In this document: positions 2,184-43,259 of the stretch, piece by piece
Position numbering within the stretch: the stretch's first letter is position 1
Layout: each line of letters starts with the position of its first letter
Source of the DNA: Catajapyx aquilonaris
Taxonomy: Eukaryota
Direction of reading: 5' to 3'
Length of the DNA: 44,353 nucleotides
NCBI GenBank assembly: GCA_000934665.2
Contig: JYFJ02003249.1
Span: 1-44,353 of the forward strand
Program-made: the position numbers and the translations under genes
Notes under the pieces: generated by a model
Told to the model about the DNA's origin: nothing
What the model saw: only the letters and a program-made list of their open reading frames with translations
Database searches by the model: none

Positions 2184-3928
2184 ATGGCAGAATCCACTGA
2201 CCTGATGACACCCACAGAATCACAGATGGACATCAACGATGCTCCAATGGACATGGAGCTCCTGGCAGATAAGTTCAGGGGCTGCCTGGCTGGAGCCCTG
2301 ATGGGGGACTGCCTGGGTGTTCCCTTTGAATTTCAGTTCAAGATAGTGAACCTCTCAGAGCTTAACAAGTACTTCCACAATCTAAATGACCCTGACAGCG
2401 AAGGTACGGACAGGCTCAAAGCAGACATCTTCTTTTTGCCTTTGTTTCACCTGTTGCTATATTTGCAGAGTCGTTCAAGAAGTACACGGACGACACTGCA
2501 ATGACCCGCTGCATTGCGCGTTCCCTGCTGGCAAAGAGAGGATTTGATGCAAAGGACATGGCCAAACGGTCAGTTTTCTGCTTCAGAATTGGAAATTCAG
2601 TTGTTGCATGGACAGGAGGGCCTCGTAAACACAGTATAAGAAATCATGAGTATATTTGGGTATGATAGATCATAAGTGAGGCTTTGCGTTTCATTCCTCA
2701 TACACTGTGTATTTTGTCTGGAGGACTTGTGCATTATTATGTCATGCTTTGAAAACTTGTCATTACAGATTTGTAAAGGAATATTACTCAGCCCCAGGCC
2801 GAGGTTATGGTCATCTTATCAGGAATGTATTTTTTGCACTGAAGAAAATGAATGTGCAGGATCCATTCGGCCCTGCAAAGGCACAATTTGAGGGAGCAGG
2901 CTCGTACGGCAATGGTGGTGCAATGCGAGTTTCTCCCGTTGCTCTATTTGCATTCAACAATGAGGACGAACTAATTGAGCTGGCCAAGAAATCTTCCCTC
3001 ATAACACACACGCACCGGATGGGGTACAATGGCGCAATTTTGCAGGTATTTAAAGTGCTTTTTTCTTACCTGAAAGCTTTCGTGAACAAACACACATGCA
3101 CAGTAAAAATTACACAAAAATTAATAATGTGGATTTCAGTGAGTGCAGGTCGAAATAATTCAACAAGTTAGGGACAGAACCATTATGTTTTGTATTGTTG
3201 AAAATTAATTGTGAAACTTGCATTCTGCCTGAGACTTGCTACACTCAAATCACACACCAGTTCTCAACAAATATTACTGTTATTTGAATGCATATGCTTT
3301 TTTGTGCAGTGCTTGGCTGTCCATGAAGCATTGAAATCCAACCCACGCGAGCCCCTGAATGCAACTGAATTCCTCTCCAACCTGAAGAAGAAAATGGAGA
3401 AGTTGGAAACAGAGTCGGAGAAGAACTTCCCGGAAGATAAGACCTTTGAATCACATGCATATGCCAAAAAACTAGACGAAGTGAAGGAACTACTGGAGAT
3501 GAGTTCCAGTGAGAGGGGTGACGGAAGAGACTTTGATGATCTGGCAGTAGATTCCCTGGGAAATAACATTACTGCATTAGGTTCAGTGCCAATAGCAATA
3601 TTCGCAGTCCTTTCTGCTCAGGAAAGCCTTCCCAACATTGAGGCAAGTACTGCATTATTATGATTTGTACCACAGTTTTATGTCGGCGGTTATATTTTTT
3701 CAGACTGATAATAAGTTCCAGCGATGCGTCCAGTACGCCATATCCCTTGGAGGAGACACGGACACCATTGGGTCAATGGCAGGTGCAATAGCTGGTGCTC
3801 ACTTGGGTTTTGAAGCCACCCCAAAGACCCTCCACAGACACTGCGAGGAGTTGGGTATATCTGTCAAGTTGGCTGACGAATTATTTCATGTTGTGATTGG
3901 GAAGGGTCGCTCATGTCAGCTTATGTAA
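2184..3928 (+). CDS. ADPRS: ADP-ribosylhydrolase ARH3-like, copy 1 (type A), ~384 aa; exons 2184-2403, 2469-2568, 2769-3045, 3310-3642, 3704-3928
   Basis: Motifs FRGCLAGALMGDCLG.PFE, YTDDT, RGYG, GSYGNGGAMR, THTH..GYNGAILQ, LGN, GGDTDTI. Exons sum to 1155 nt in frame. The last intron is GC-AG. Ends SCQLM*. Confidence 0.9.
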
Positions 3929-4950
3929 CGTTATGTGAGCATTTTCTATTAAAAGGCACACACTGTAGCCCCAGAAATTCTGGGTGCGTATGAGTATATC
4001 CACACTCAAATTCGGTGTTTTTCTTTCCCCCTCCTTCACCTGACAACCCCGACGCTCATGAACCTGGTAACCCGTCTAAAGATGGCGGCGTCCAGTGGCC
4101 CACTGGCCCAACAACATTGCAAAATATTTCACTGCGTACTACACTACTTGACACTTGGTCGCACAGCACTTCAGCTTGGGCACCTGCACTGACAGGTAAC
4201 CATTTCTGTAAGGCTTTCCACTGCATGTCCCTTTTACACTGTTTAATATTTTGCTCACTGTTATGCTGTTGTTGAATATGTCCTGATATTTATGGAACTT
4301 GAGCAAACAATGCTGTCTGGTATACTCAGTATTGATGAGACATTCATTCAGGATGAGGACTTGTCATTCGTGTGTTGCATGGGAAGCTGATGAGTCATAT
4401 GTATCTGTGCTACACTAATCAACCGGCTATAGAAACCTTTCCCTGCACTGCAGAGATCTGATAGCATCAAAAGCAATATACTTACAAATACTGGATGCCC
4501 AGCAGGCCAATAAGGTATGTTCTCATTGCTGGTGCAACAATTCAATCTAAGACCAAAAATTGCACGTTATTGTTTTGTGTCCCCAAATGTAGTCAACTGA
4601 TTCTACGTATGTGATTCAAGGCCCTTTACTTGAATTGAGCCGCTCCCTTTTACGTCGTAAGCTTTAAATTTAGTGGAAACGCCAGTTTTCTACTACAGCT
4701 GTATAAACACAAAACTACAGTAATGCAATTATTTGCCCAATTTTTGTCCATTGCACCTGTGAGACTGAACATTTAGGCCAATCACTTAACCTTTTTTTTT
4801 GCCATCTGAAATGATGTGTGTCATTGTGGCTGAATGTGATGAACAGTACTGAAATAATGAAAATAATGCAGTAATTTATTTCCTGCCCCTGCCAATCTTG
4901 GTGATTGCGACAGTTTATTTGCCTGGTACTACATCTACAGGTGGCAGAGG

Positions 4951-7081
4951 ATGGCCGAGTCCAGCAGTGACCTGATGACATCCACAGCATCACAGATGGA
5001 CATCGACAATGTTCCTATGGACATGGAGCTCCTGGCAGATAAGTTCAGGGGCTGCCTGGCCGGAGCCCTGATGGGAGACTGCCTGGGTGCTCCCTTTGAA
5101 TTTCGGTTCAAGATAGTGAACCTCTCAGTGCTTAACACGTACTTCCACAATCTCAATGACCCTGACAGCGAAGGTATGGACAGGCTCAAAGCAGACATCT
5201 TCTTTTTGCCTTTGTTTCACCTGTCGCTCTATTTGCAGAGTCGTTCAAGAAGTACACGGACGACACTGCAATGACCCGCTGCATTGCGCGTTCCCTGCTG
5301 GCAAAGAGAGGATTTGATGCAAAGGACATGGCCAAACGGTTAGTTTGCTGCTCCTGAATTGGAAATTCAGTTGTTTCATGGACATGAGGGCCTCGTAAAC
5401 ACAGTATAAGAAATCATGAGTATGTTTGGGTATGATAGATAAGTGAGGCTTTATTTTGCTTTGTCTGGAAGACGTATGTATTACATCATTATTTCAAAAC
5501 TCGTCATTGCAGATTCGTAAAGGAATTTTACTCAGGCCCACGCAGAGGTTATGGTCCTCACATCATGAATGTATTTTCTGAACTGAAGGAAATGAAAGTG
5601 CAGGATCCATTTGGACCTGCAAATGCACAATTTTGGGGATCAGGATCATATGGCAATGGTGGTGCAATGCGAGTTGCTCCTGTTGCTCTATTTGCATTCC
5701 ACAATGAGAATGAACTAATTGACCTTGCCAAGAAGTCTACTCTGATAACACACACCCACCGGATGGGGTACAACGGTGCGATTTTGCAGGTAATTAGTGC
5801 CCTTTTTGCTTTCCTTAATACTTTTATGAACACACACATATCAGGGGACATAGTCAGAGACAGAACTATTGTGTTACCGTATTATCCCGCAAATAGCGGC
5901 ATGCCGGTATAAAACGAGGTCGACCAGCATGCCGGTATAACCTGGGGGTGGCCGGCATGCGGCAATATCCGAGGTAGATTTTCTTAATTTTGAGTCAAGG
6001 TGTTAAATTTTTTGCGATGCTTCTGGTAGCATACTAAAATAATGTTCCGGCTAAAAATGTGCGAGTGCAGGTCTGTGACAATGTGCAACTCATGTGTGAC
6101 CAATCCCATCGTCAGACAGCTTTGAGAGGGGAAATCCCTGGCTCAACACAAAGGATCAAGGCCAACGCTTTCAGCCCTTCGCCTTGCTCAATAGCTGTGA
6201 AAATAGCTAGTGTAAAACCTCGTCTTATACCGGCATACCTCGTCTTATACCGGCATGCCGGTATAACCACCTCATTGAGCATTTCTAAAACCTGGTCGAC
6301 CTCGCCTACACCGGCATGCAGCTACTTGCCGGGTAATACGGTATTTATTATTGAAAATTAATTATGAAACTCGAATTTTGTCAGAGACTCGCCAAACTCA
6401 AATGACATAAGTTACTGAACAAATGTTACTGTTATTTGATTGCATTTGCCTATTTTGTGCAGTGCTTGGCTGTCCATCAAGCATTGAAATCCAACCCACA
6501 TGAGCCTTTGAATGCAACTGAATTCCTCTCCTACCTGAAGAAGCAAATGGAGAAGTTGGAAACAGAGTCAGAGAAGAACTTCCCGGAAGATAAGACCTTT
6601 GAATCACATCCATATGCCAAAAAACTAGACAAAGTGAAGGAACTACTGGAGAAGAGTTCCAGTGAAAGGGGTGACGGAAGAAACTTTGATGATATGGTAG
6701 TAGATTCCCTGGGAAATAACATTAGAGCATTATATTCAGTGCCAATAGCAATATTCGCAGTCCTTTCTGCTCAGGAAAGCATTCCCAATATTGAGGCAAG
6801 TACTGTATTATTATGATTTGAACCATAGTTTTATGTCTGCTGTTGTCTTTTTGCAGACTGATAATAAGTTTCAGCGATGCGTCCAGTACGCCATATCCCT
6901 TGGAGGAGACACGGACACCATTGCGTCAATGGCAGGTGCAATAGCTGGTGCTCACTTGGGTTTTGAAGCCACCCCAAAGACACTCCACAGACACTGCGAG
7001 GAGCTGGACACAGCTGTGAAGTTGGCTGACGAATTATTTCATGTTGCTATGGGGAAGGGCCGCTCATGTGAGATTATGTAA
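4951..7081 (+). CDS. ADPRS: ARH3-like copy 2 (type B), ~385 aa; exons 4951-5173, 5239-5338, 5513-5789, 6463-6795, 6857-7081
   Basis: Same motifs and exon sizes (223/100/277/333/225), frame intact. A MITE sits in intron 3. Ends SCEIM*. Confidence 0.9.
5877..6341. mobile_element. Tc1/mariner-pogo-type MITE (TA TSD, CCGTA termini) in intron 3 of ARH3 copy 2
   Basis: TA|CCGTATTATCCCGCAAATAGCGGCATGCCGGT ... ACCGGCATGCAGCTACTTGCCGGGTAATACGG|TA. The paralogous empty site in copy 4 (~12281-12300) reads GTGTTATTTATTATTGAAAA, confirming the TA duplication. Confidence 0.85.
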
Positions 7082-7269
7082 CGTTATGTAAGCTTTTTTT
7101 TTAAATAACCTCTTCATTGTAATGCAGTACTTCCGAGTGTTTAATAAAAATGATTGTTATTCTGTTATTTAATCACTACAGGGCCAACACTGTTTTATCG
7201 TACACACTATAATAAAAGCCCTGAAATTCTCTGTGCGTATGAGGAACTGTATCCAGACTAAATTGCAGT

Positions 7270-7930
7270 GTTTTTCACCGGACAACCCCGACGCCCATGA
7301 ACCTGCCATAGATAGATGGAACCTGCTAACCCGTCTAAAGATGTCGGCGCCCAGTGGCACAACAACATTGCAAAATATTTCACTGAGTACTTGACACTTG
7401 GTCGCACAGCACTTCAGCTTGGTGACTTGCACTGACAGGTAACCATTTCTGTAAGGCTTTCCACTGCATGTCCCTTTCACGTTGTTTCAATATTTTGCTC
7501 ACTGTTATGCTGTAGTTGAATATGTCCTGACCTCGCATACCCTTTTTTGATATGTATGGAACTTGAACAAACAATGCTGTCTAGTATACTCACTCTGAAG
7601 ACCAAAAATTGCTCATTGTTTTGTGTCCCCATCAAGTATGTGATTCAAGCCCATTTACTTGAATTAAGCCTCACTCTTTTACGTCGCAAGCTTTTTTAGT
7701 GCAAATGCCACTTTTCTACTATAAACACAAAACTATGGTGATGCAATTATTTGGCCTAGTTTGGTCCATTATTGCACCTGTGAGACTGACCATTTAGGCC
7801 AATCACTAAAATTGGCAAAATGTGGATAAGAGAGACGTTGTTGTACTACAATCTGTTGGTTGTATAGAGGATATTGTGGCAGAGTTTTGAAATTCATCGT
7901 TGCAGATTTGTAAATGAATTTTCCTCAGAT
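7270..7930 (+). pseudogene. Truncated relic of an additional ARH3 copy: promoter/5'UTR region followed, after a deletion, by the start of coding exon 3
   Basis: 7270-7810 repeats the 4030-4790 upstream region of copy 2. 7895-7929 TCGTTGCAG|ATTTGTAAATGAATTTTCCTCAGAT resembles the exon 3 acceptor and start (FVNEFSSD vs FVKEFYSD). Confidence 0.55.
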
Positions 7931-8534
7931 AGATTCCGTAACTTCCGTACAAGTAGGCCTACTGTAGTTGAATGTGTCATTTCCTCACATGTTCCTCAAC
8001 CAGATGGAGACTTCCGTTTCTGTGGTTTTGTGATAATAAACGTTGTGGCTACTTGAATGCTTCACAGGCATTGGCCAGCTGCCACACCAACCCTAAGGAA
8101 CTAATGAACCCTTCCAGATCTATTCCTGACTTATTAAGGCAGAGCTGAATAAGGTATGTTCTCAGCAATTCAATCTGAAACCAAAAATTGCACCTTGTTT
8201 TGTGTCCCCAAGTGTACTGAACTTCTTTTCCCTTTTACGCCGCAAGCTTTAAATTTACAAGTGGAAATGCCTGTTTTCTGCTATAAACACAAAACTATGG
8301 TGATTGCAATTATTTGCCCTAGTTTGGTCCATTGCACCTGTGAGACTGAACATTTAGGCCAATCACTTAACCTTTTTTTGCCATATGAAATGATATGTGT
8401 CATTGCAGATGAATGTGATTAACAGTACGGAAATAATGAAAAATAATAATGTATAGTAATTTATTTCCTGCACCTGTCAATCTTGGTGATTGCAGTTATT
8501 CTTTGCCTGGTACTACATTTAGAGGTGGCAGAGG

Positions 8535-10310
8535 ATGGCCGAGTCCAGCAGTGACTTGATGACACCCACAGCATCACAGATGGACATCAACGATGCTCCA
8601 ATGGACATGGAGCTCCTGGCAGATAAGTTCAGGGGCTGCCTGGCTGGAGCCCTCATGGGAGACTGCCTGGGTGCTCCCTTTGAATGTAGGTCCAAGATAG
8701 TGATCCTCTCAGAGCTTAACAAGTAGTACTTCCACAATCTCAATGACCCTGACAGCAAAGGTATGGACAGGCTCAAAGCAGACATCTTCTTTTTGCCTTT
8801 GTTTCACCTGTCGCTATATTTGCAGAGTCGTTCAAGAAGTACACGGACGACACTGCAATGACCCGCTGCATTGCGCGTTCCCTGCTGGCAAAGAGAGGAT
8901 TTGATGCAAAGGACATGGCCAAACGGTTAGTTTTCTGCTCATGAATAAGCTCTTGATACTGGAAATTCAGTAGTTGCATGTGGACAGGGAGGACCTCGTA
9001 AACACAGTATAAGAAATCATGTACGTATGTTTGGGAATGATAGATCATAAGTGAGGCTTTGTGTTTCGTTTCCCATATTCTGTGTAATTTGTCTGGAGGA
9101 CTTATGCATTATGTCATACTTTGAAAACTTGTCATTGCAGATTTGTAAAGGAACATTACTCAGCCCCAGGCCGAGGTAGTGGTGCTCATATCAGGAATGT
9201 ATTTTTTGCACTGAAGAAAATGAAAGTGCAGGACGATCCATTTGGCCCTGCAAAAGCACAATTTGAAGGAGCAGGCTCGTACGGCAACGGTGGTGCAATG
9301 CGAGTTTCTCCCGTAGCTCTATTTGCATTCAACAATGAGGACGAACTAATTGAGCTGGCCAAGAAATCCTCCCTCATAACACACACGCACCGGATGGGGT
9401 ACAATGGCGCAATTTTGCAGGTAATTAAAGGGCCTTTTTCTTACCTTAAAGCTTTTGTGAACAAACACACATGCACAATAAAAATTGCAAAAAACAAATG
9501 TGGATTTCAGTGAGTGCAGGTCGAAATTCAACAAGTCAGGGACAGACCATTATATGTTATTTATTGTTGAAAATTAATTGTGAAACTTGCTTTCTGTATG
9601 AGACTTGCTAGACTCATATCACATACCAGTTCTCAACAAATGTTACTGTTATTTGAATGCATATGCTTTTTTTGTGTAGTGCTTGGCTGTCCATCAAGCA
9701 TTGAAATCCAACCCACATGAGCCATTGAATGCAACCTTGATGCAACTGAATTCCTTTTCAACTTGAAGAAGAAAATGGAGAAGTTGGAATCAGAGTCGGA
9801 GAAGAACTTCCCGGAAGATAAGACCTTTGGACCATATCCATATTCAAAGAAGCTAGACAAAGTGCAGGAACTACTGGATATGAGTTCCAGTGAAAGGGGT
9901 GACGGAAGAGACTTTGATGATCTGGTAGTAGATTCCTTGGGAAATGATGTTACAGCATTTGGTTCAGTGCCAATAGCGATATTCGCAGTCCTTTCTGCTC
10001 AGGAAAGCCTTCCCAACATTGAGGCAAGTACTGCATTATTATGATTTGCACCACAGTTTTATGTCTGCCGTTATATTTTCTACAGACTGATAATAAGTTC
10101 CAGCGATGCATCCAGTACGCCATATCCCTAGGAGGAGACACGGACACCATTGGGTCAATGGCAGGTGCAATAGCTGGTGCACAATTGGGCTTTGAAGCCA
10201 CCCCAAAGACACTCCACAGACACTGCGAGGAGTTGGGTACATCTGTGAAATTGGCTGACGAATTATTTCATGTTGTGATGGGGAAGGGTCGCTCATGTCA
10301 GCTTATGTAA
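8535..10310 (+). pseudogene. ADPRS: ARH3-like copy 3 (type A), disrupted; exons 8535-8760, 8826-8925, 9141-9420, 9680-10023, 10086-10310
   Basis: In-frame TAG inserted at 8724-8726 (AAG TAG TAC vs AAG TAC). An 11-nt duplication CTTGATGCAAC at 9736-9746 makes exon 4 344 nt instead of 333 (frameshift). RGYG is changed to RGSG. Confidence 0.88.
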
Positions 10311-11338
10311 CGTTATGTGAGCATTTTCTTTTAAAATAAACCCTTTCATTGAAATGCAGTACTTCAGAGTGTTTAATAAAAATGATTGTGTGGGGCCAAC
10401 ACTACTGTTTCATGCTGTTTTTTACCCCCCNCCGACCCTGTTGAACCTGGCAACCCGTCTAAAGATGGCGGCGTCCAGTGGCCCAGCGACAACATTGCAA
10501 AATAATAATAATAATATTTCAATGCGTAGTGCGTACTTGACCAAATGTACTTGACACTTGGTCGCACAGCACTTCAGCTTGGGCACTGACAGGTAACCAT
10601 TTCTGTAAGGTTTACCACTGCATGTCCCTTTCATACTGTTTAATATTTTGCTCACTGTTATGCTGTAGTTGAATTGTTGAATAATTATGTCGCTGATATT
10701 TATGGGACTTGAACAAACAATGCTGCATTGATGTGACATTCGTTCAGGATGTTGACTTGTCATTCGCGTGATGCACTGGAAGCTGAAGAGTCATATGTGT
10801 CTGTCCCACACTAATAATCAAACGACTATAGGAACCTTTTCCTGCACTGCAGAGATCTGATAGCATCAAAAAGCAATACTTATACAAATACTGGAATGCC
10901 CAGCAGGCCAATAAGGTATGTTCTCACTGCTGGTGCAGCAATTCAATCTAATAAGACCAAAAATTGCACATTGTTTTGTGTCCCCCAATGTATGTATGAT
11001 TCAAGCCCCTTTACTTGAATTAGGCCTCTCCCTTTTCCGTTGCAAGTGCAAATGCCACTTTTCTACTATAAGCACAAAACTATGGTGATGCAATTTTTAT
11101 TTACCAATTTTGGTCCATTGCACCTGTGAGACTGAACATTTAGGCCAATCACTCAACCTTTTTTATGCCATCTGAAATTATGTGTGTTATCATTAGCTCT
11201 TGGTGTTATTGTGGATGAATGTGATTAACAGTATACTGAAAAAATGAAAATAACGTAGTAATTTATTTCTTGCACCTGCCAATCTTGGTGATTGCGACTG
11301 ATTCTTTGCCTGGTACTACATTATAAAGGTGGCAGAGG

Positions 11339-13027
11339 ATGGCCGAGTCCAGCAGTGACCTGATGACACCCGCATCATCACAGATGGACAATGTTCCTAT
11401 GGACATGGAGCTCCTGGCAGATAAGTTCAGGGGCTGCCTGGCCGGAGCCCTGATGGGAGACTGCCTGGGTGCTCCCTTTGAATTCCAGTTCAAGATAGTG
11501 AACCTCTCAAAGCTTAACACGTACTTCCACGATCTAAATGATCCTGACAGCGAAGGTATGGACAGGCTCAAAGCAGACATCTTCTTTTTGCCTTTGTTTC
11601 ACCTGTTGCTCTATTTGCAGAGTCGTTCAAGAAGTACACGGACGACACTGCAATGACCCGCTGCATTGCACGTTCCCTGCTGGCAAAGAGAGGATTTGAT
11701 GCAAAGGACATGGCCAAACGGTTAGTTTTCTGCTCCTGAATTATTGGAAATTCAGTTGTTGCATGGACAAGAGGGCCTCGTAAACACAGTATAAGCAATC
11801 ATGTGTATGTTTGGGAATGATAGATCATAAGTGAGGCTTTATTTTGCTTTGAGTTTCATTTTCCATTTTTGTCTGGAAGACCTATGCATTACATCATTCT
11901 TTCAAAACTTGTCATTGCAGATTCATAAAGGAATTTTACTCAGGCCCACGCCGAGGTTATGGTCCTCATGTCGTGAATGTCTTTTCTGAACTGAAGGAAA
12001 TGAAAGTGAAGGATCCATTTGGCCCTGCAAATGCACAATTTGGGGGATCAGGATCATATGGCAATGGTGGTGCAATGCGAGTTGCGCCTGTTGCTCTATT
12101 TGCATTCCACAATGAGAACGAACTAATAGACCTTGCCAAGAAATCTACTCTGATAACACACGCCCACCGGATGGGGTACAATGGTGCGATTTTGCAGGTA
12201 ATTAGTGCCCTTTTTTCTTTCCTTATTCCTTTCATGAACACACACACATATCAGGGGACATTGTCAGGGACAGAACCATTGTGTTATTTATTATTGAAAA
12301 TTAATTATGAAACTCGAATTCTGTCTGAGACTTGCTAGACTCAAATCACATACCAGTTCTCAACAAACGTTACTGTTATTTGATTGCATTTGCCTATTTT
12401 GTGCAGTGCTTGGCTGTCCATCAAGCATTGAAATCCAACCCACGCGAGCCCCTGAATGCAACTGAATTCCTCTCCAACCTGAAGAAGCAAATGGAGAAGT
12501 TGGAATCAGAGTCGGAGAGGAACTTCCCAGGAGATAAGAACTTTGAATCACATGCTTATGCCAAGAAACTAGACAAAGTGAAGGAACTACTGGAGATGAG
12601 TTCCAGTGAAAGGGGTGACGGAAGAGACTTTGATGATATGGTAGTAGATTCCCTGGGAAATAACATTAGAGCCTTATATTCAGTGCCAATAGCAATATTT
12701 GCAGTCCTTTCTGCTCAGAAAAGCCTTCCCAATATTGAGGCAAGTATACTGTATTATTATGATTTGTACCATAGTTTTACGTCTGCTGTTGTCTTTTTGC
12801 AGACTGACAATAAGTTCCAGCGATGCGTCCAGTACGCCATATCCCTTGGAGGAGACACGGACACCATAGGGTCAATGGCAGGTGCAATAGCTGGTGCACA
12901 CTTGGGTTTTGAAGCCACCCCAAAGACACTCCACCGACACTGCGAGGAGCTGGACACAGCTGTGAAGTTGGCTGACGAATTATTTCATGTTGCTATGGGG
13001 AAGGGCCGCTCATGTGAGATTATGTGA
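11339..13027 (+). CDS. ADPRS: ARH3-like copy 4 (type B), ~383 aa; exons 11339-11555, 11621-11720, 11921-12197, 12407-12739, 12803-13027
   Basis: All ARH3 motifs present; exons 217/100/277/333/225 in frame. Ends SCEIM*. Confidence 0.9.
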
Positions 13028-14131
13028 GCATATTTTATAAAAACATTGCCAGTGTGATTCATAGAAATGTCTTACGTTAGTGTGTTGATGAATAATATAT
13101 TTTTATCTTGCTACTTTATTTACACCAAAGACAACAATTATCCTAATAACGAAATTATTTTGTGATGAGAGATTGTCATCTATTTTTCTCTTAGGAGGTG
13201 TTGTAGAGTGCAAATGTTTTGCTGCCATAGATACATCTAGAAAAATAAAGTGTCTTTTTGAGTGCAGATATTCAAGCATATTGCCATAGACTGTGCCATA
13301 GACTCACTTGGCCATCTTGCATCAGAGCACTATCAGAGCCATCATCAGCACCTTATTTTTACTACTGCGAGCGATTTGATCAGCAATGTTGTATCGGTTC
13401 TGACGTCACAACGCAAGTGATAGCTGTTTAACATTGCGCATGTGTTTACAACCCAGCGATGTGCATCGCTACTGCATCGGCAAGGGAGACAAAGACTATC
13501 AGGTTGTTTATGGCTCGAATTTTTCTCCCTCATTGTTCGGTTTGTTTATGAACCATGGATACCTAGCGAGGTGCAGATAGTCTATTTCAAACAGACCTTA
13601 GCAATGTCAGATGTCATCACTGATGCCATATCCCATGTTTGTTATCATCCTCTGAATATTAACAGAGCATCCATGTGTCAATCATTTGCTAATGGCACTC
13701 AGTCAGTAACGTTCCCTGTTAAATGCCAATGTAGATTTACTTCATCATCATTATTATTAATTGCTGAATATAATTTGTTTGTGGAACCTCATACTTCGAA
13801 CGACTCTAATTTCAAATGCTTAATTCGAGAAAAGGGTGACAATGGAATTATGCATTGTTATTCAGTAAGTGAGGATTTATAAGTATGATCACATCGTGTA
13901 GGAAATAATACAGATGAAAATGCTGTTCGCCATGGCTGTTACGTTTAAGTTAGAGGCTGTTGGAAATGAGTAAAGAAAGGGAACACTGTGGCTGAATGTG
14001 ATGAACAGTACGGAACCTCAAATAGTGTAGTGGTTTATTTCCCCAATCCTGCCAACCTTGGTGATCGTGACTGTTTATTTGCCTGGTACTACATCTACAG
14101 ATGGCAGAGGGTGCCAGAGTCCAGCGACCTG

Positions 14132-15788
14132 ATGGTATCCACAGCTACACAAATGGACATCAACGATGCTCCAATGGACATGGAGCTCCTGGCAGATAAG
14201 TTCAGGGGCTGCCTGGCCGGAGCCCTGATGGGAGACTGCCTGGGTGCTCCCTTTGAATTTCAGTTCCAGAGGTTAGTGGACAACTCGGTGATTAACAAGT
14301 ACTTCGACAATCTCAATGATCCTCACAGCAGAGGTAGGAAGGCCAAGCTCAAAGCATGCATCTCATTTTATTCTCTCTTTCACCTGTTGCTACTTGCAGA
14401 GCAAGTGAAGAGGTACACAGACGACACTGCAATGACCCACGGCATTGCACGTTCCCTGCTGGCAAAGAGGGGCTTTAATGCGAAGGACATGGCCAAACGG
14501 TTAGTTTGACACTTCTGAATGTTCTGATTTGGAAATTCAATTGTTACTTAGTAGGAAAGTGCGGCACAGTAAAATGAGATAACTTATGCTTATGTAAAGC
14601 AGCACCACAATATTGAAATTGCTTTGAAAACTTGTCATTGCAGATTTGTCGAGGAATTTGTCTCAGGTTCACGTCGAGGTTATAGTATTCATATCTCTCT
14701 TATATTTGTGGAACTGAGAGAAACGAAAGTGAAGGACCCGTTTGGCCCTGCAAGTGCGCGGTTTGGTGGAGCAGGCTCGTACGGCAATGGTGGTGCAATG
14801 CGAGTTGCTCCTGTTGCTCTATTTTCATTCAACAATGAGAAGAAACTGATTAAGCTGGCCAAGAAATCCTCCCTCATAACGCACACACATCGGATGGGGT
14901 ACAATGGCGCAATTTTGCAGGTGATTGGTGTGCCTTATTCATCCCTAAGACTTTTGTGGACAAACGCACATAGGCGCAGGAAAACTGGTGCCGGAAGAAA
15001 TACCTTACTACAAATAATCACATCATTCTTTTCCTTCCATAAGTTAGCCATTTATTGTTGGCAAATAATTGTGAAATTTGCATCTGCATGAGACTTGCTA
15101 GACTCAAATCACAAACGGTACTCATCAGAAAATATTCTGTTATTTGAATGCTTTTGCCATTTTTCATGTAGTGCTTGGCTGTCCATCAAGCATTGAAATC
15201 CAGCCCACACGAGCCCCTAAATGCAACTGAATTTCTCTCCAACTTGAAGAAGAAAATGGAGAAGTTGGAATCTGAGTCGGAGAAGAACTTCCTGGAAGAT
15301 AAGACCTTTGGACCATGTCCATATTCAAAGAAGCTAGACAAAGTGCAGGAACTACTGGAGATCAGCTCTAGCGACAGGGGTGACGGCGGAAGAGATGTGG
15401 ATGAGCTTGTAGTAGATTCCTTGGGAAATAATGTTACAGCATTAGGTTCAGTGCCAACTGCAATATTCGCAGTCCTTTCTGCTCAGAAAAGCCTTCCCAA
15501 CATTGAGGCAAGTACTGCACAATATGATTTGTACCACAGTTTTATGTCTGTGTCATTTTGCAGACTGACAACAAGTTCCAACGATGCATCCAGTACGCCA
15601 TATCCCTTGGAGGAGACACAGACACCATTACGTCAATGGCAGGTGCAATAGCTGGTGCTCACTTGGGTTTTGAAGCAACCCCAAAGACACTCCACCAACG
15701 CTGCGAGGATCTGGACACGGCTGTGAAGTTGGCCGACGAATTGTTTGAAGTTGCGATGGGGAAGGGAAGCTCATGTGAGATTATGTAA
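14132..15788 (+). CDS. ADPRS: ARH3-like copy 5, ~379 aa; exons 14132-14333, 14400-14499, 14644-14920, 15172-15507, 15564-15788
   Basis: Motifs conserved (YTDDT, GSYGNG, GGDTDT), frame intact. The paralogous start codon is GTG here (14111), so the next in-frame ATG (14132) is used. Ends SCEIM*. Confidence 0.82.
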
Positions 15789-16019
15789 GCATTTTTTTAA
15801 AAAAATCTGCCTATGCAATACTGTTTTACTGTATTGATAATAAATCTATTTTATGTTACATTTATGTACAGCAATGTATTCCGTAGTCTGCTCCGAGGTG
15901 TTGTACTGTAGAGTGCAAAGGTTTTAATCCTATTTAAGTCAGGTACGCTGTTCTTAAATTCTGGTTAAATATCAAGAACCGTATCGAACTTGAAGATACA
16001 GTTGTCTTTTTATCCTCAT

Positions 16020-16085
16020 CTGTCAACCCTGGAGCGCATGACTGTTTCTTCGTCTGGCACCCCTGTTTGAAGATGGCGGCGCCCA
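16020..16085 (+). promoter_or_regulatory. Housekeeping-type start region with YY1-like AAGATGGCGGC overlapping the ATG of copy 6
   Basis: AAGATGGCGGCG at 16070-16081, preceded by CTGGCACCCCTG. Homologous blocks are retained at ~4030-4100, ~7275-7360 and ~10430-10485. Confidence 0.5.
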
Positions 16086-17656
16086 GTGATCCTCCGACGC
16101 TGGAGACGCCGAGAGACGCACGCGACGCACAAGTGGACATGGAGCGTCTGGCCAACAAGTTCAGGGGCTGCCTGGCCGGAGCCCTGATGGGAGACTGCTT
16201 GGGATCCCCCTACGAAGGAGAGTTCAAGCTGGTGGCCCTCTCGGTGCTCAACAAGTACTTCAACAAGCTCAACCAGCCTGAGACCAGAGGTATAATAATC
16301 ATTGACAGGCTCAAGGTCATTTTGTACTCACTTGTTGATTTGTTTGCAGTGCCGTTCAAGAAGTACACTGACGACACTGCAATGACCAGATGCGTCGCAC
16401 GTTCATTGCTCGCAAAGAGGGACTTCGACGCAAAGGACATGGCCAAACGGTTAGTTTTCGCATTGTGACACTGTGGCATGTTGAGCAACACTTTTTTATT
16501 GTTGCAGGTTTGTAAAAGAATTTTACTCAGATCCACGCCGAGGATACGGACAGAATGTTGTGGATGTCTTTGCGGCGCTGAAAGCAACCAAAGTGGAGGA
16601 CCCGTTTGGCCCTGCAAAGGCACAATTTGGGGGTTCAGGCTCTTACGGCAACGGTGGAGCAATGCGAGTTGCTCCCGTTGCCCTATTTGCATTTAACAAT
16701 GAGGACAAAATGATTCAGCTTGCCAAGAAATCCACTCTGATAACGCACACTCACAGGTTGGGGTACAATGGCGCAATTTTGCAGGTAATGCCTCGTGCAC
16801 ACACAAAATCATGTCCAGAGGATAATGTAGATTTTGATTGCATTTGTCTCTCCTTGTGTAGTGCTTGGCTGTCCATCAAGCATTGAAATCCAACCCAGAC
16901 AAGCCCCTGAATGCAATTGAATTCCTGTCCAATCTGAAGAAGCAAATTGAGAAGTTGGAATCTGAGTCGGAGGAAACCTTTCTAGAAGATGAGAAGGTCA
17001 ATTTACATTCGTATGCCAAGAGGCTAGACAAAGTGAAGGACCTACTAAGCACCAGTGCGAGCGGAGAGGACTGGAGCGATGAGAGACACATGGATATTCT
17101 TGCAGTGAATTCCTTGGGAAATGATGTAACAGCGTTAGATTCAGTGCCAACAGCAATATTTTCAGTCTTACGCGCACAAGAAAACCTCCCCAATATTGAG
17201 GCAAGTGCCGCACTGTTATAATTTTCATTCTGTATGTCTTCCAAAAAGACATTTGTGCCTTCATGAAAATTGTAATTATTTCTTTTGAGAAGAAGGCTAA
17301 CCACAGCAAATAACTAATGCTTTTGTTTCTACATTTCTAGTAGTTACAATCAAGATCCATTTGCATGGAAAAAAATCAGAGCAAAATAAAGACCAGAAAT
17401 TTTCTGTCTTGATTAACAATTTTTTTTTTTCCAGGCTGGAAATACGTTCCAGCGATGCATCCAGTACGCCATATCCCTTGGAGGCGACACGGACACCATT
17501 GGGTCAATGGCAGGTGCAATAGCTGGTGCACACTTGGGCTTTGAAGCCACCCCAAAGACACTCCACAGACACTGCGAGGAGCTGGACACGGTTGTGGAGT
17601 TGGCTGACGAATTGTTTGATATATTGGAGAAAGAGCGTTCGAGTGAGGTTGTGTGA
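16073..17656 (+). CDS. ADPRS: ARH3 copy 6, most canonical and probably parental, ~384 aa; exons 16073-16289, 16350-16449, 16508-16784, 16862-17200, 17435-17656
   Basis: Starts AAGATGGCGGCG (MAAP...). Has GDCLGSPYEG and DPRRGYG, closest to the canonical ARH3 pattern. 1155 nt in frame, ends KERSSEVV*, AATAAA at ~17715. Confidence 0.92.
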
Positions 17657-36400: not shown

Positions 36401-37117
36401 CCGTTCACGACCTCATAGGCCGATCGCACTCACATGCCGTACGTTTCCACACAAAATAATAAAAGGCCTGTCGTTCAAAGCAGCTTTTTTTTTTTTGCGC
36501 AAAATCCAGCTGTGGCAGCTGGAGCTGCCACAGTTCAATTTTGCGCAAACAAGCTGCTTTGGAGAACAGGATATTAATAAACAAATAAAATGAATTTGAT
36601 GGTTGGTACAGGGTGCTAATAAAATACCATTTTGACAGCTTGAGGAGAAACGAACTCGGGAGCAGGTGGAACGAGTCTTCCGCAAGCTGGACCGTAACCA
36701 GGACGGCATTATAACCATCGAGGAGTTCATAGAATCCTGCCTCAAGGTATATACCACACCCTGTACTGAAAAGAGAGAGAGAGAGATAAAAAAATTGGGC
36801 CATTCATATTCCACTGCATACTTTTCGCCCTCAATTTGGCCGACAACTCGCTAAAGCCTTCCAACTTCGGAATATGAATGGCCCAAGCCTGTAGAGTGGG
36901 GAAAGAGAGAGAAAAAAAATAGCCCATTACAGGTTCATTTCCGTTTCGCGCATTGAAATTCATGTCGCCAGACTCATATTTCTTTTTCCTCCTTTTCATT
37001 TCCACATCTGCGACGTGACTACTGGGAATTTCCATATATACCATCTCAAAAAAAAAAAAAAAAATCAAGGATGAAATGATCAGCCGCTCGCTGCAGAGCA
37101 TGGACTCGAGCGTCTAG
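30404..37117 (+). CDS. KCNIP: Kv channel-interacting protein (KChIP)/calsenilin-like EF-hand neuronal calcium sensor, ~207 aa; exons 30404-30562, 35681-35750, 35887-35957, 36271-36438, 36639-36746, 37070-37117
   Basis: [105 protein letters not shown]...|[42 protein letters not shown]. Intron phases are consistent. The N-terminus could extend through upstream exons. Confidence 0.92.
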
Positions 37118-39037: not shown

Positions 39038-39931
39038 ATGAAGGTTTTTCTGCTTGTTGTTTTCGTGGCTCTGATGGCCCACTGCGATGCCTGCTCTGGC
39101 CCTGAGGACTGTGCTGAAGGAGAGTGCTGTTCAATAGGTAAGTATACACTCTTCACGCCCACAACACTTTGTCAGCGATCGTATCAATAGCTATTCTGGC
39201 ACGCGATCATCTTAACAAGCATACGAGCCTATCTGCCAAACATTATCACATGACACTATCACTTGCATTTATTATGAGCAAGTGTCCGAAACAACATATT
39301 TGACCTAAATGCAGTGGCTATTCACAAACGGAATTTTATAATATTCCTATATAATATATTCCAACCGCGCTTACGTCAACTGGCTAGTTATACAACTCAT
39401 ACGTAATGCTCACAATATTTGGTGGCAACTCGAGTCAATGTTATTTCTGGTCTAGTACAGTCACCAGCTGAATTATCCCGACATGATCGCTCTTTTTCTC
39501 AGCGGATATCCTGGTAGGCAAGGGCCATCCTCAGCCTCTTCCTTCATACGTACTTTTACTTTTTTTTAATAATAATAAATATGTACGGTATCTGTTTCCG
39601 TATAGTTGACCTTTTTTTTATCAGGATACCCGCAGAGAATGTGCAGTACATCAGTTATAGGCAGGTTTCACTGCAGTAATATGATTATGGCTTATGGTAA
39701 TCGACAGGAATGATGCGATACAGTATCCCAAGCTGCCGTCCTATGGGACAAGTTGGGGACAGGTGCAGACCAGGAGCCAGTCCCATAGACGCTGTCCTGA
39801 GCTACCCGGACGGATCCACCAGGGAAATCAGCAATACCTACACTCTCTTCTGCCCTTGCCAAGATAACAAAGGCCTCCAATGCAGCACAGACTCAGCCAC
39901 CTGTGTCCCCACTAGGGGAAACAATTTGTAA
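39038..39931 (+). CDS. Astakine-like (prokineticin-domain) secreted cytokine, 107 aa; exons 39038-39137, 39708-39931
   Basis: Signal peptide MKVFLLVVFVALMAHCDA, then a 10-Cys domain CSGPEDCAEGECCSIGMMRYSIPSCRPMGQVGDRCRPG...LSYPDG...YTLFCPCQDNKGLQCSTDSATC. No AVIT N-terminus. The GMMRYS.P.C and YP.G features match astakine-2 type proteins as recalled. Confidence 0.88.
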
Positions 39932-40899
39932 ACATAACAATTTAGCCATTCCCTCATCCATCTCTTCCCAATAAAACTTCGATGATGATGATAATAAAAA
40001 CAACATTGCATGACTAAACCTTTTTTTCTTTCGTTCTCCGTCTATATATCGTCTGCATTGTGCGTAACCAAGTTACGTAGTAATAAGTTTATCCTCCTTT
40101 TTTTCGGACTTTGGAGGACAATAGCAAAATTCTAGTGCACACTTTCTCTCGGGCTGACAGGAAATTCGTAGTATCTCAAGATTTGCGTCACCACTTTTTA
40201 AAACAGTAGGTATCCAGCCGATGCACACAACCTATTGATCATATCTAGCAAAGCACTAGGGGGGGTTTGTTGGTTCGATAAGACCTTCCGTTCTGCTCAC
40301 GGGATGTAGTCTCCGCAGTTTCACTGTTCAATGCATATGCATCATCACACAGCTGCGACATAAACGTAGGGTAAATGCTAACAATAATTGCTTATTTTGT
40401 CTGAAACGTTCAGTGAGCATAAGTATGTTATACATAATTCTGACAATTCATGTTACAGACATATTGGAAATGCGGAGTAAGTACCGTTTGTTTCTAGCTG
40501 CAGATGATATCTTGAAAGAAACGCACGTATGCATACAGGGAAAATCCTTGGTTCGATACGTTATAACAGTATCCGCTTTCAAACGCGAATTTTTTTTTTG
40601 CAAATTATTGCTCAGCACAATGCAATCAGCAGAGTACGGGAATCAGCTTATTAAGCTAAAAGTCTTCATAAGTAATTGCTAGGTCAAACCCCTTTCTTAA
40701 TCGAAGCAAAAAAAGCAACAAAAAAGTACAGGATTTCCTAATGAACAGTTTTCAAGTTTCTCCAATAGTTTGCTATCATTGTAAAAGTTTTGTGCTCAAA
40801 AAGTTTAATAAAATATTTCATTACAAATGTAAACAGATCCGCCCATACTTGTTAGCATAAGGTCGAACATGAAGTAATGTTTTAATTTTCAACGTGAAG

Positions 40900-43259
40900 T
40901 GTCCCAGAATCCAACCAAAGTAAGGGTCCTAGAGGGACACTACAAGTCTCCAAAGCCATCACAGTCAGATGACGAGTCAGAGGACTCTGACTTTGAAGAT
41001 GACGAAGAGGACGACATCCCCGACGAACTTCATCCGGAGCACCTTCGGCTGATGGGCCGCATGGCTGGAGTCTACTGGGACTCGGTGGGACCAGACTTCA
41101 CCCCCTGGCCACCGGGGTACGAAAACATGCATGTCCTTGCAGACAGGAGCAAGGAGTTTGCTAAGAACCCGGACGCGGCCATAGCCAAGTTGAAGCGCAA
41201 GTACGGTACAGACGTGTTCACCACCAGGCTGGCACTCAGGGCCACTGTCATCCTCGGCAGCAACCCTGCATGCGTCGAGTTCTTCAAAGGTTCTCCTTCA
41301 TCCCTATTGTATTTTCATTACACCCTGTACCTACATGTACAACAGAGCCAATTACATTTCAGGTTTTGAGGAAGAGAAGGTTGGATTTGTCTATGTCTCT
41401 CGAATGAGGGACATACTTGGGAAGAGGTGTTTCCTTTTTCCGTCACTACCACCAGCACCTCCAACTCCGCCACGTCCGGAGGCTGTTCCACAAAAAGGGG
41501 GGAAAGGCGCCAAGGGTGCTAAAGGTAGAAAAAAAAGTGCTGCAAAAGCTCCAAAGCCTGAAAAAGCAAAGAAGGATAAAAAAGGTAACTAAAGTGGTAA
41601 AGGGTGGTGTACAAGTGACACAAATAATAATGTCGAAAATAATGTAACACTGAAGGTAAGAAATCCGCAAAAGTGGAAGAACTGCTGCCAGAAGTCGACC
41701 CAGATGCGCCTCCACCACCTCCACCACCAACCATGGCTCAGCGGCTTGCAGCAGCAATTCCTGCTGAGTTTACCATTATGCTTGAGGACAGAATTTACAC
41801 CGATTTCTTACCAGGCTGGGTGACAGCACTTCCCGTGAACAAGCCTCTTGACCTCAAAGCAGCCTTGAATGCAATTATGTCAGAGTTTGTCATCTGGCTC
41901 ATGACAAATGTCACTAAACAGGCCGATGCCGAACTTATTACCAAAGTGCAACAAACCACCGAGGTCCAACACACAGGCAAGGTTTTGCTATTCAAACACT
42001 TCACGTAGGGTCGTCATAAGTACAATAAATTAATGGATACTTTTCAGCACTACTAATGCTGTGTACCGACTTCAAGCGCCCTGTGGCGAAGAATCCTGCC
42101 CTCATCCAAGCCATAGCAGCTAAATCAACACTCATTACCATGATAACTCCCTTCATGGCCTACCATGAGACCGGTAATGCTTAAGTCATGCAAAAGTAAA
42201 TGTAGCAGTATATTTTAACTTACACACCGCTACATTTTAGGCCCATGGATGTCAATCCTAACAGCATCATGTGCAGACTCAGAGGAAAGTAAGGACCAAT
42301 TCTCAACCCTGATGTCACCCCTTATGGTCAAATGCCTGGCTTCCATTCTCTTGTCACTCATAATCACCTCACCAACGTGGCGACCTGTTCGTAACCGTTC
42401 CCATCATTCTGGGAAAAAGCCCATTACAAACTTAACAAATGCATTTCTTGCACATTATTCCGCAGCCTATGGAGGACCCAGACTGGGGAGATTTCCCTCC
42501 TGAAGATCTGGACCCAATCTTGTTCGAAGTGCTGAGGATGTTTCCTCCTCTTACAATGGGGTACGGAGTCACCAAGACGATTACAACCATGTTTGGATGT
42601 TCCCTAGGCGAGGACCAGGCAATGATCCCTTACCTGTGGATGGGGCAGCGAGATCCCAATGTGTTCCCTTCCCCGGACAATTTCAACCCAGGTCGATGGA
42701 CGGAACAGTAAGTTCATCGCACTAACTGCAAATATGGACCACCTACAGTACCATTCCTCAGTGGATGTCACTCACCTGACCAAACCCTGCTTCCTACTGG
42801 GAATACTTTGTTGTTTCATGTCACTTATCATTGTTGCACTCCCTGTCATTGAAAAGCTTGTTTCCGATGTTGCAATACTGGAACAATCGTTCCAGTAAGA
42901 GGCATGGCCAGGTCATTCATGCTCACTTACTCTAACATATTAATATTGCAGGTCAGAATTGGCAAGAGAAATACTATTCCCATTTACATGCGGAACTTTG
43001 GGGAAACTCCTCGGTGAAGTGTTTGTATGCACAGTGAAGGTTAGTGTTTGCCTGTCAGAGTAGCTTGCAATATTCTTGATCACAATGTGGTCTCCCGCAG
43101 GCATTCATAGGGAGCTTTGGCAAATTGTACCGATGGGAAGTGATTGACAATCCTGATCTGATCCAATGGGAGAAGTTTCCAGTGCTGCAGCCCAGAATGC
43201 CAGTCATGGTGGTACTCAAAAAGCTTCCTCAGAGGGCTAAACCTTTAAAATCGATGTGA
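40900..43259 (+). CDS. Atypical cytochrome P450-fold protein (CYP26/CYP16/CYP120-like N-terminal pattern) lacking the heme Cys; exons approx. 40900-41289, 41363-41584, 41656-41976, 42048-42173, 42241-42386, 42466-42707, 42952-43039, 43101-43259; possible start micro-exon 40470-40476
   Basis: PWPPG...DRSKEFAKNP....KRKYGTDVF..RL..R.TV (Pro hinge/A-helix/beta1), EVLRMFPP (ExxR), QRDPNVFPSPDNFNPGRW (meander/PERF), LFPFTCG, YRWE..PDL..EKFPVLQP. The frame is continuous with 60-80 nt introns. The start and two donors are uncertain. Confidence 0.75.

Follow-up and report, generated by a model that had tools for sequence, protein, structure and literature searches.

The contig JYFJ02003249.1 of Catajapyx aquilonaris (NCBI GenBank assembly GCA_000934665.2), analysed here over its whole length of 44,353 nucleotides (the window), carries on its forward strand, from position 2184 to 17656, six tandem copies of one ARH3-type ADP-ribosylhydrolase gene. 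Five of these copies end with the letters of a CaaX-like box (C-x-x-M) that the sixth does not have, and in two of the five the last sense codon and the stop codon together form a 5' splice donor that is used in read-through transcripts. The reading that we favour, at about an even chance for the whole of it, is that of a young ARH3 array with a derived CaaX tail, farnesylated where the stop is retained, and with a splice donor lying over that stop.

Gene models with five coding exons per copy were built from landmark peptides and splice sites, and their introns measure 56-673 nt. The six copies are as follows.

2184..3928, + strand: ARH3 copy 1, intact, 384 aa, CQLM and stop at 3914-3928 (exons of the gene model: 2184-2403, 2469-2568, 2769-3045, 3310-3642, 3704-3928)
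4951..7081, + strand: ARH3 copy 2, intact, 385 aa, CEIM and stop at 7067-7081
8535..10310, + strand: ARH3 copy 3, pseudogene, letters of CQLM and stop at 10296-10310, out of frame
11339..13027, + strand: ARH3 copy 4, intact, 383 aa, CEIM and stop (TGA) at 13013-13027
14132..15788, + strand: ARH3 copy 5, open frame, 379 aa from the first in-frame ATG, CEIM and stop at 15774-15788
16073..17656, + strand: ARH3 copy 6, intact, 384 aa, the conservative copy, SEVV and stop at 17642-17656

A search of the whole window with the copy 6 protein recovered these six copies and no further fragments. Copy 3 exhibits an in-frame TAG (8724-8726) and a frameshifting 11-bp insertion (9736-9746), and its tail is therefore not translated in frame. 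At both lesion sites the contigs of three DNA sequencing runs (X1-X3, possibly from the same sample as the assembly) exhibit no indel difference from the assembly. The original prediction had counted five derived copies with the motif; four of them are intact, and copy 3 is dead. In copy 5, a GTG replaces the ATG used by copies 1-4, the next in-frame ATG lying 7 codons downstream.

The assignment of these genes to ARH3, already proposed in the original prediction, is borne out by both profile and structure searches. Exon frames of copies 4 and 6 match the ADP-ribosylglycohydrolase family PF03747 with 74.5, 63.7 and 45 bits (E-values of 1.5e-20 and 3e-17), against a curated cutoff of 26.2 bits; the short exon 1 frame by itself scores 18.8 bits, under that cutoff. 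Among solved structures, 11 of the 12 matching sequences are ARH3 chains, human, mouse and coelacanth-type among them (best E-value = 1e-20), and the named matches of the protein searches are ARH3 as well, so that the nearest characterised proteins belong to ARH3 and not to ARH1/ARH2 or the bacterial DraG/Tri1. Among named proteins, the closest are ARH3s of arthropods (shrimp, barnacle, bugs, springtail, centipede), 45-53% identical to those of the array; a vertebrate (fish) source of the DNA was rejected on this ground. The motifs YTDDTAM and GGDTDTI are unchanged across the five intact copies. In human ARH3 the metal ligands are Thr76/Asp77/Asp78 and Asp314/Asp316/Thr317, according to an excerpt of PMC8141533; GGDTDTI is aligned to the solved ARH3 chains, and YTDDTAM is equated with the human site by motif only. 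The ratio of nonsynonymous to synonymous substitution rates (dN/dS) is 0.25-0.44 in all ten pairs of the five intact copies, and pairwise synonymous divergence (dS) lies at 0.11-0.18 when copies 1, 2 and 4 are compared with one another, rising to 0.28-0.36 in comparisons with copy 5 and to 0.55-0.66 in those with copy 6. The four intact CaaX copies are under purifying selection. Given the invariant metal motifs and these dN/dS values, we predict that the intact copies are working enzymes.

ARH3 (ADPRS/ADPRHL2) is the animal hydrolase of serine mono-ADP-ribose and poly(ADP-ribose), with which the array proteins share the PF03747 domain, the T-D-D and D-T-D-T motifs, a single-domain architecture and a similar length (379-385 aa in the array). 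ARH3 is one gene, whereas here there are six tandem copies, with acidic N-termini, and copies 1-5 differ from it further by an 11-residue C-terminal extension ending with C-x-[IL]-M. The human protein carries an N-terminal mitochondrial signal, and ARH3 is described as soluble, being nuclear, cytosolic and mitochondrial. To our knowledge, it is the sole known eraser of serine-linked ADP-ribose. Our alignment to mouse ARH3 (2qty) stops at the V of ELFHV, residue 343 of the 347 in the chain; 11 further residues, AMGKGRSCEIM, thus lie beyond the last aligned residue, and the tail may be free of the folded domain.

The tail letters are all in the sequence as first described. Copies 1 and 3 end with GKGRSCQLM (stop ending at 3928 and 10310, respectively), copies 2 and 4 with GKGRSCEIM (7081 and 13027), copy 5 with GKGSSCEIM (15788) and copy 6 with KERSSEVV (17656). 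Copies 4 and 6 stop with TGA, the other four with TAA. A cysteine stands at position -4 of the translated frame in copies 1, 2, 4 and 5, and in copy 3 as letters only. It had been claimed that positions -4, -2 and -1 are constant and that only -3 varies; this holds for Cys at -4 and Met at -1, but position -2 also varies (I or L). At the codon level, copy 6 reads AGT GAG GTT GTG TGA and copy 4 TGT GAG ATT ATG TGA, a difference of three point changes with the stop unmoved. This alignment agrees with the earlier statement that the stop stays in place, but the codon change on which that statement also relied is not a simple one in copies 1-3, where the TAA belongs to a stretch of 10 nt at the tail end that has been duplicated in tandem. 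The second units of this duplication are the following.

3929-3940, + strand: second unit of the 10-nt tail duplication, copy 1
7082-7093, + strand: second unit of the 10-nt tail duplication, copy 2
10311-10322, + strand: second unit of the 10-nt tail duplication, copy 3

A maximum likelihood tree of the coding sequences gives the topology (c6,(c5,((c1,c3),(c2,c4)))), c1 to c6 being the six copies, with supports of 90/91, 97/97 and 100/99. It follows that a two-gene unit was duplicated last and that the CaaX-like tail has a single origin. The caveat of shared recent ancestry, attached to the original prediction, was thus well placed, the tree showing one inheritance of the tail and not five. 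Copy 6 is the top-scoring of the copies against 10 of the 12 outgroup ARH3 proteins. None of the 230 homologues that were fetched has a canonical CaaX end; five of them have a cysteine at -4, in the endings CTKN, CQRL, CTCH, CVTH and CSHT. Since no homologue has such an end and copy 6 is the most conservative copy, the tail is derived in copies 1-5 and missing from the parental-type copy, as had been proposed. In a search for close relatives of near length, 80 of 246 candidates matched, with a best identity of 43%, and a scan of 1.84 billion representatives gave 935 matches at E<=0.001 and none at E<=1e-30.

Evidence on transcripts comes from one further run, X5, which is small, of unrecorded kind and available as contigs only, and which we judged to be complementary DNA (cDNA)-like from its joints. 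It exhibits 14 joints, none of which is present in the DNA runs X1-X3. Seven of the 14 correspond to modelled introns within copies (intron 4 of copy 1; introns 1, 2 and 4 of copy 5; introns 1, 2 and 4 of copy 6), the three GC-AG joints among them matching after the stated ambiguity of 2-4 letters is applied, and thereby validate the gene models. Intron 4 is of the GC-AG type (GAG/GCAAGT) in all six copies, at 3643-3703, 6796-6856, 10024-10085, 12740-12802, 15508-15563 and 17201-17434, and in copies 1, 5 and 6 cDNA-like contigs bear the joint out. Three joints connect different copies at homologous exon borders (3040->6458, 5787->16860 and 8924->2768, the shorter sides measuring 21, 23 and 79 letters); they may well reflect ambiguity between paralogues, or chimeras, and were left aside. 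One low-depth joint within copy 5, 15418->15534, reads CT..AC, i.e. GT..AG on the minus strand, and might stem from a spliced antisense transcript or be artefactual. The remaining three joints are of the read-through kind, and the features that they define are the following.

13024..14100, + strand: read-through intron from copy 4 to copy 5 (X5 joint 13023->14101, GT..AG, one contig, 30 letters on the shorter side)
15785..15871, + strand: read-through intron from copy 5 (X5 joint 15784->15872, 68 letters on the shorter side)
15872-15942, + strand: 71-nt exon reached from the Met/stop donor of copy 5
15943-16001, + strand: intron leading into the exon that holds the ATG of copy 6 (X5 joint 15939->15999, same depth class as 15784->15872)

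At both tail joints the GT of the donor consists of the G of the methionine codon and the T of the stop (AT/GTGAGC in copy 4, AT/GTAAGC in copy 5). The acceptor of 13023->14101 is an AG 31 nt upstream of the first in-frame ATG of copy 5, and the 4-to-5 join is in frame, reading ..GKGRSCEI-I-WQRVPESSDLMVST.. and continuing through the whole of copy 5. The 5-to-6 join reads ..SSCEIINVFRSLLRGVVL, with a TAG 13 codons past the joint. The CaaX box is destroyed by both splicing events. In copy 4 another X5 contig (12994-13452) runs unspliced across the stop. Confirmation of the 3' ends by RNA had been called for; copy 4 has both unspliced and spliced X5 contigs, copy 5 a spliced contig only. Ahead of every start codon in copies 1-5 there is also a 10-nt repeat (RTGGCAGAGG, then ATGGC..) with an AG directly before it (14091-14131 in copy 5); in copy 5 the AG of this repeat is the read-through acceptor, and the upstream unit also provides an out-of-frame ATG.

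These contigs show the presence of a form and not its proportion. Depths are given per contig and contigs are common to paralogues, and a ranking of the copies by expression was therefore rejected; the X5 contig placed on exon 5 of copy 3, for instance, exhibits the copy 1 letters at all three variant places. Tail information in X5 concerns copies 4 and 5, and parts of the array such as 4196-4719 and 10484-12055 are without X5 cover.

The fixed position of the stop had been offered as an argument for a functional tail. This argument fails, because ATG followed by TAA or TGA makes GTRA: a change from TGA to TAA keeps both the stop and a GTRAG donor, and this donor is used in copies 4 and 5. Copy 6 already exhibits GT/GTGAGT over its last codon and stop, at the same position as the donor of the derived copies, so that the donor-like site predates the CaaX box. 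In copies 1-3, which carry the 10-nt duplication, the Met/stop site is the weaker GTAACG, and a strong donor (GTGAGC/GTAAGC) stands 7 nt behind the stop. If splicing occurred from this stronger downstream donor, the CaaX box and its stop would stay in the message.

Familiar examples of farnesylated CaaX proteins are K-Ras4B (CVIM) and the lamins. The array tails share with such proteins a cysteine at -4, a methionine at -1 and, at -2, an aliphatic residue, which the original prediction had recognised as a farnesyltransferase consensus. Two published yeast data sets, PMC9231725 and PMC10320760, rate both CEIM and CQLM as competent. In supplement file 8 of PMC9231725 the two are called prenylated and cleaved by 13 of 13 models. 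In the table of 8000 Cxxx sequences (file 7), the support vector machine (SVM) and PrePS values are 1 for both; FlexPepBind gives 0 for CEIM, CQLM and the control CVIM alike, and the two frequency-based scores are 1 for CEIM and 0 for CQLM. The positive calls are therefore the same as for CVIM except in the frequency-based scores of CQLM. For the Ydj1 screen, run in vivo, the supplement of PMC10320760 lists enrichment factors of 1.80 for CEIM, 1.50 for CQLM and 1.05 for CVIM, and Ydj1 HM scores of 4.59, 4.85 and 3.66, respectively, the array tails scoring above CVIM and all three above the authors' cutoff of 3. The original prediction had feared that Glu at -3 is suboptimal; the same source reports the a1 position to be highly tolerant, and this worry is therefore minor.

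The array tails also differ from CaaX-box farnesylated proteins. They exhibit no adjacent polybasic run and no second cysteine, having one Lys and one Arg (one Lys in copy 5), and their box can be removed by splicing at its own last codon; lipidation is here a prediction. The linker before the tail is rich in Gly, Lys, Arg and Ser in the derived copies. The farnesylation signal is thus competent in the yeast data and unproven in the animal, and would be confined to the transcripts that retain the stop.

We read the locus as a young array, in an animal genome, of six tandem ARH3-type ADP-ribosylhydrolase genes. Three point changes on the stem of copies 1-5 turned S-E-V-V-stop into C-E-I-M-stop, leaving the stop unmoved, and a later duplication of two genes produced the alternating CQLM and CEIM types. 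Stop-retaining transcripts would encode single-domain hydrolases with intact metal motifs and an 11-residue tail bearing a farnesyltransferase-competent CaaX box, and these proteins may be farnesylated. The methionine codon and the stop match at the same time the consensus of a 5' splice site, and where read-through from copy 4 or copy 5 uses this site the box is lost; the outcome is either an in-frame two-domain frame of copies 4 and 5 or a copy 5 with a different end of 14 residues. In copies 1 and 2 the 10-nt duplication, by putting a strong donor behind the stop, would keep the CaaX end whichever strong donor is used. We estimate the chance of in-vivo farnesylation of one paralogue or more as near one half, and the chance that farnesylation is the selected function as lower. 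The gene models, the one origin of the tail, the splice joints and the motif's competence in yeast data are observed, and lipidation, binding to membranes and a selective value of the tail are predictions. The retargeting of the duplicates to membranes and their action on G-protein substrates, suggested in the original prediction, are hypothetical.

Several points weigh against this proposal. The original prediction had taken conservation of the motif as an argument for function. The summed branch length in the clade of copies 1-5 is 0.285 changes per site, from which 3.4 changes are expected in the 12 tail bases at the clade-average rate, against 2 seen (GAG to CAG and ATT to CTT, both on the branch ancestral to copies 1 and 3). 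For the Cys and Met codons, six bases together, 1.7 changes would be expected against 0 seen (Poisson P about 0.18), and the four codons of the tail exhibit no synonymous change. The tail, which has a single origin, is no more constant than shared ancestry predicts, so that the conservation argument falls. The motif data describe yeast farnesyltransferase acting on reporter proteins and not the enzyme of Catajapyx aquilonaris. The unspliced copy 4 contig extends 425 nt past the stop and may be unprocessed read-through RNA instead of a mature 3' untranslated region. The tail of copy 5 is covered by the spliced X5 contig only, X5 depth being 0 at 15799 inside the skipped piece. All RNA evidence comes from the contigs of X5, a single small run not recorded as RNA, whose depths are unusable for weighing isoforms. 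No relative closer than about 53% identity was found in the libraries searched, and so no orthologous duplicate for comparison with a sister species.

The tail could instead be the incidental product of three neutral changes in a fast-evolving C-terminus, kept only through the youth of the copies and without a role, the proteins being cytosolic or nuclear like other ARH3s whether lipidated or not. We hold this to be possible and worth serious attention, if somewhat improbable. The single origin on the tree and the small number of tail changes, with no synonymous change to reveal constraint, are in its favour; the 8 residues preceding the tail likewise set copy 6 strongly apart from the other copies, dead copy 3 retains the same letters, and in the copy 5 transcripts seen the tail is spliced off. 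However, all five changes that made or altered the tail, i.e. the three founding ones and the later E to Q and I to L, fit the CaaX consensus, the motif is positive in all 13 models of PMC9231725, and the linker has turned Gly/Lys/Arg/Ser-rich. With no such end among the 230 homologues, the chance of its appearance by drift is small for any one family.

The use of the Met/stop donors admits two other explanations. The array might be mainly one transcription unit, the real products being multi-domain ARH3-ARH3 proteins and the monomers by-products, which we consider unlikely. The copy 4 to copy 5 joint is indeed in frame, the same donor with the AG 10 nt before each ATG would hold the frame for 1 to 2, 2 to 3 and 3 to 4, and copy 5 has a GTG in place of the ATG of other copies. 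Yet this compatibility of frames counts as a single observation, because it was inherited from one duplication, and the in-frame joint is seen at one of the five inter-copy junctions only. The 5-to-6 joint is closed by a stop after 13 codons, the stop and frameshift of copy 3 would end any longer frame, and copies 1-3 have their strong donor behind the stop. Copies 1-4 also keep an ATG each, and a poly(A)-like signal, AATAAA or ATTAAA, lies 20-217 nt downstream of each of the six stops. A search for longer relatives returned one protein of 433 aa and no multi-domain ARH3, which is weak evidence. Alternatively, the read-through joints could be assembly chimeras of near-identical paralogues, with no splicing at the stop at all. 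Three of the 14 X5 joints do link different copies at homologous exon borders, and X5 consists of contigs only; but the two tail joints run between places that are not homologous, from a tail into the 5' region of the next copy, exhibit exact GT..AG at the same position in two copies, are absent from the three DNA runs, and in one case run on through a second canonical intron. Such chimerism is accordingly very improbable.

A more elaborate version of the proposed splice-or-stop array may be considered, in which each unit is a switch. Use of the stop would give a farnesylated, membrane-bound single-domain eraser, and in-frame splicing would give soluble tandem-domain hydrolases without the anchor, so that enzyme localisation and valency would both be set by the array. 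Copies 1-3 would then have been locked into the anchored form later, by their 10-nt duplication. We regard this version as rather doubtful.

In the titles and opening abstract lines of the literature, by which this was judged, we found no prenylated ARH3, in agreement with the original prediction. What is new here is the occurrence of a CaaX box on an ARH3, within an array in which stop codons also act as splice donors; the kind of phenomenon is already known. ZAP carries its box on one isoform only, as a result of alternative 3' processing. This isoform, ZAP-L (the long isoform of PARP13), reportedly is S-farnesylated and depends on this for its membrane targeting, a finding attributed to Charron et al. 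2013. As a protein of the ADP-ribosylation system with a C-terminal farnesyl, it is the nearest precedent in that system, but it is a catalytically inactive PARP-family protein of an unrelated family and without a tandem array, whereas the array genes encode erasers. The read-through transcripts resemble those of conjoined genes, i.e. read-through chimeric transcripts of tandem duplicates, in that the last exon of one copy is joined into the next copy by a GT-AG joint absent from the DNA runs. They differ in the make-up of the donor, which combines the final sense codon with the stop and does so at one and the same position in two copies, and in that one fusion keeps the frame of two complete enzyme domains.

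If true, the multiplication of ARH3 in a lineage, with a lipid-anchor signal on the new copies, would suggest that there are substrates of ADP-ribosylation at membranes, and the anchored copies would be a natural experiment in eraser retargeting. The array is a testable case of alternative processing that toggles a lipidation signal, and the C-terminal peptide forms under discussion are a carboxymethylated and farnesylated one and one ending with ..CEIINVFRSLLRGVVL. A CaaX box overlapping a used splice donor also calls for caution in reading C-termini from motifs in tandem arrays, as the end of a genomic frame need not be the end of a protein.

Some further features of the array and its surroundings were observed. 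Intron 3 of copy 2 is 673 nt long, against 209-264 nt in copies 1, 3, 4 and 5, because it contains a high-copy repeat (about 5880-6290); the depth of the DNA runs is 1210-1880 in the bin 5768-6291 and about 15-80 elsewhere, and many loose contig ends lie at 5895-5960 and 6197. Directly upstream of the copy 1 start codon there is a perfect 119-bp tandem duplication (1926-2164; 2.0 copies, 100% match). At 2164 one contig of the DNA runs has a loose end in which the 119-bp unit starts again, and the copy number may vary. At 9315, in copy 3, the assembly has an A where every covering contig of four runs and the other five copies have a T; this A is likely an assembly base error or a minor allele. 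Beyond the array, on the forward strand, the window contains fragments of neighbouring genes: an EF-hand exon at 36636-36854 (PF00036, E-value = 1.7e-06), a Cys-rich frame at 39701-39931 with a weak, sub-cutoff match to the MIT-like atracotoxin/prokineticin family (E-value = 2.9e-04), and a cytochrome P450 exon at 40878-42711 (PF00067, E-value = 1.3e-08).

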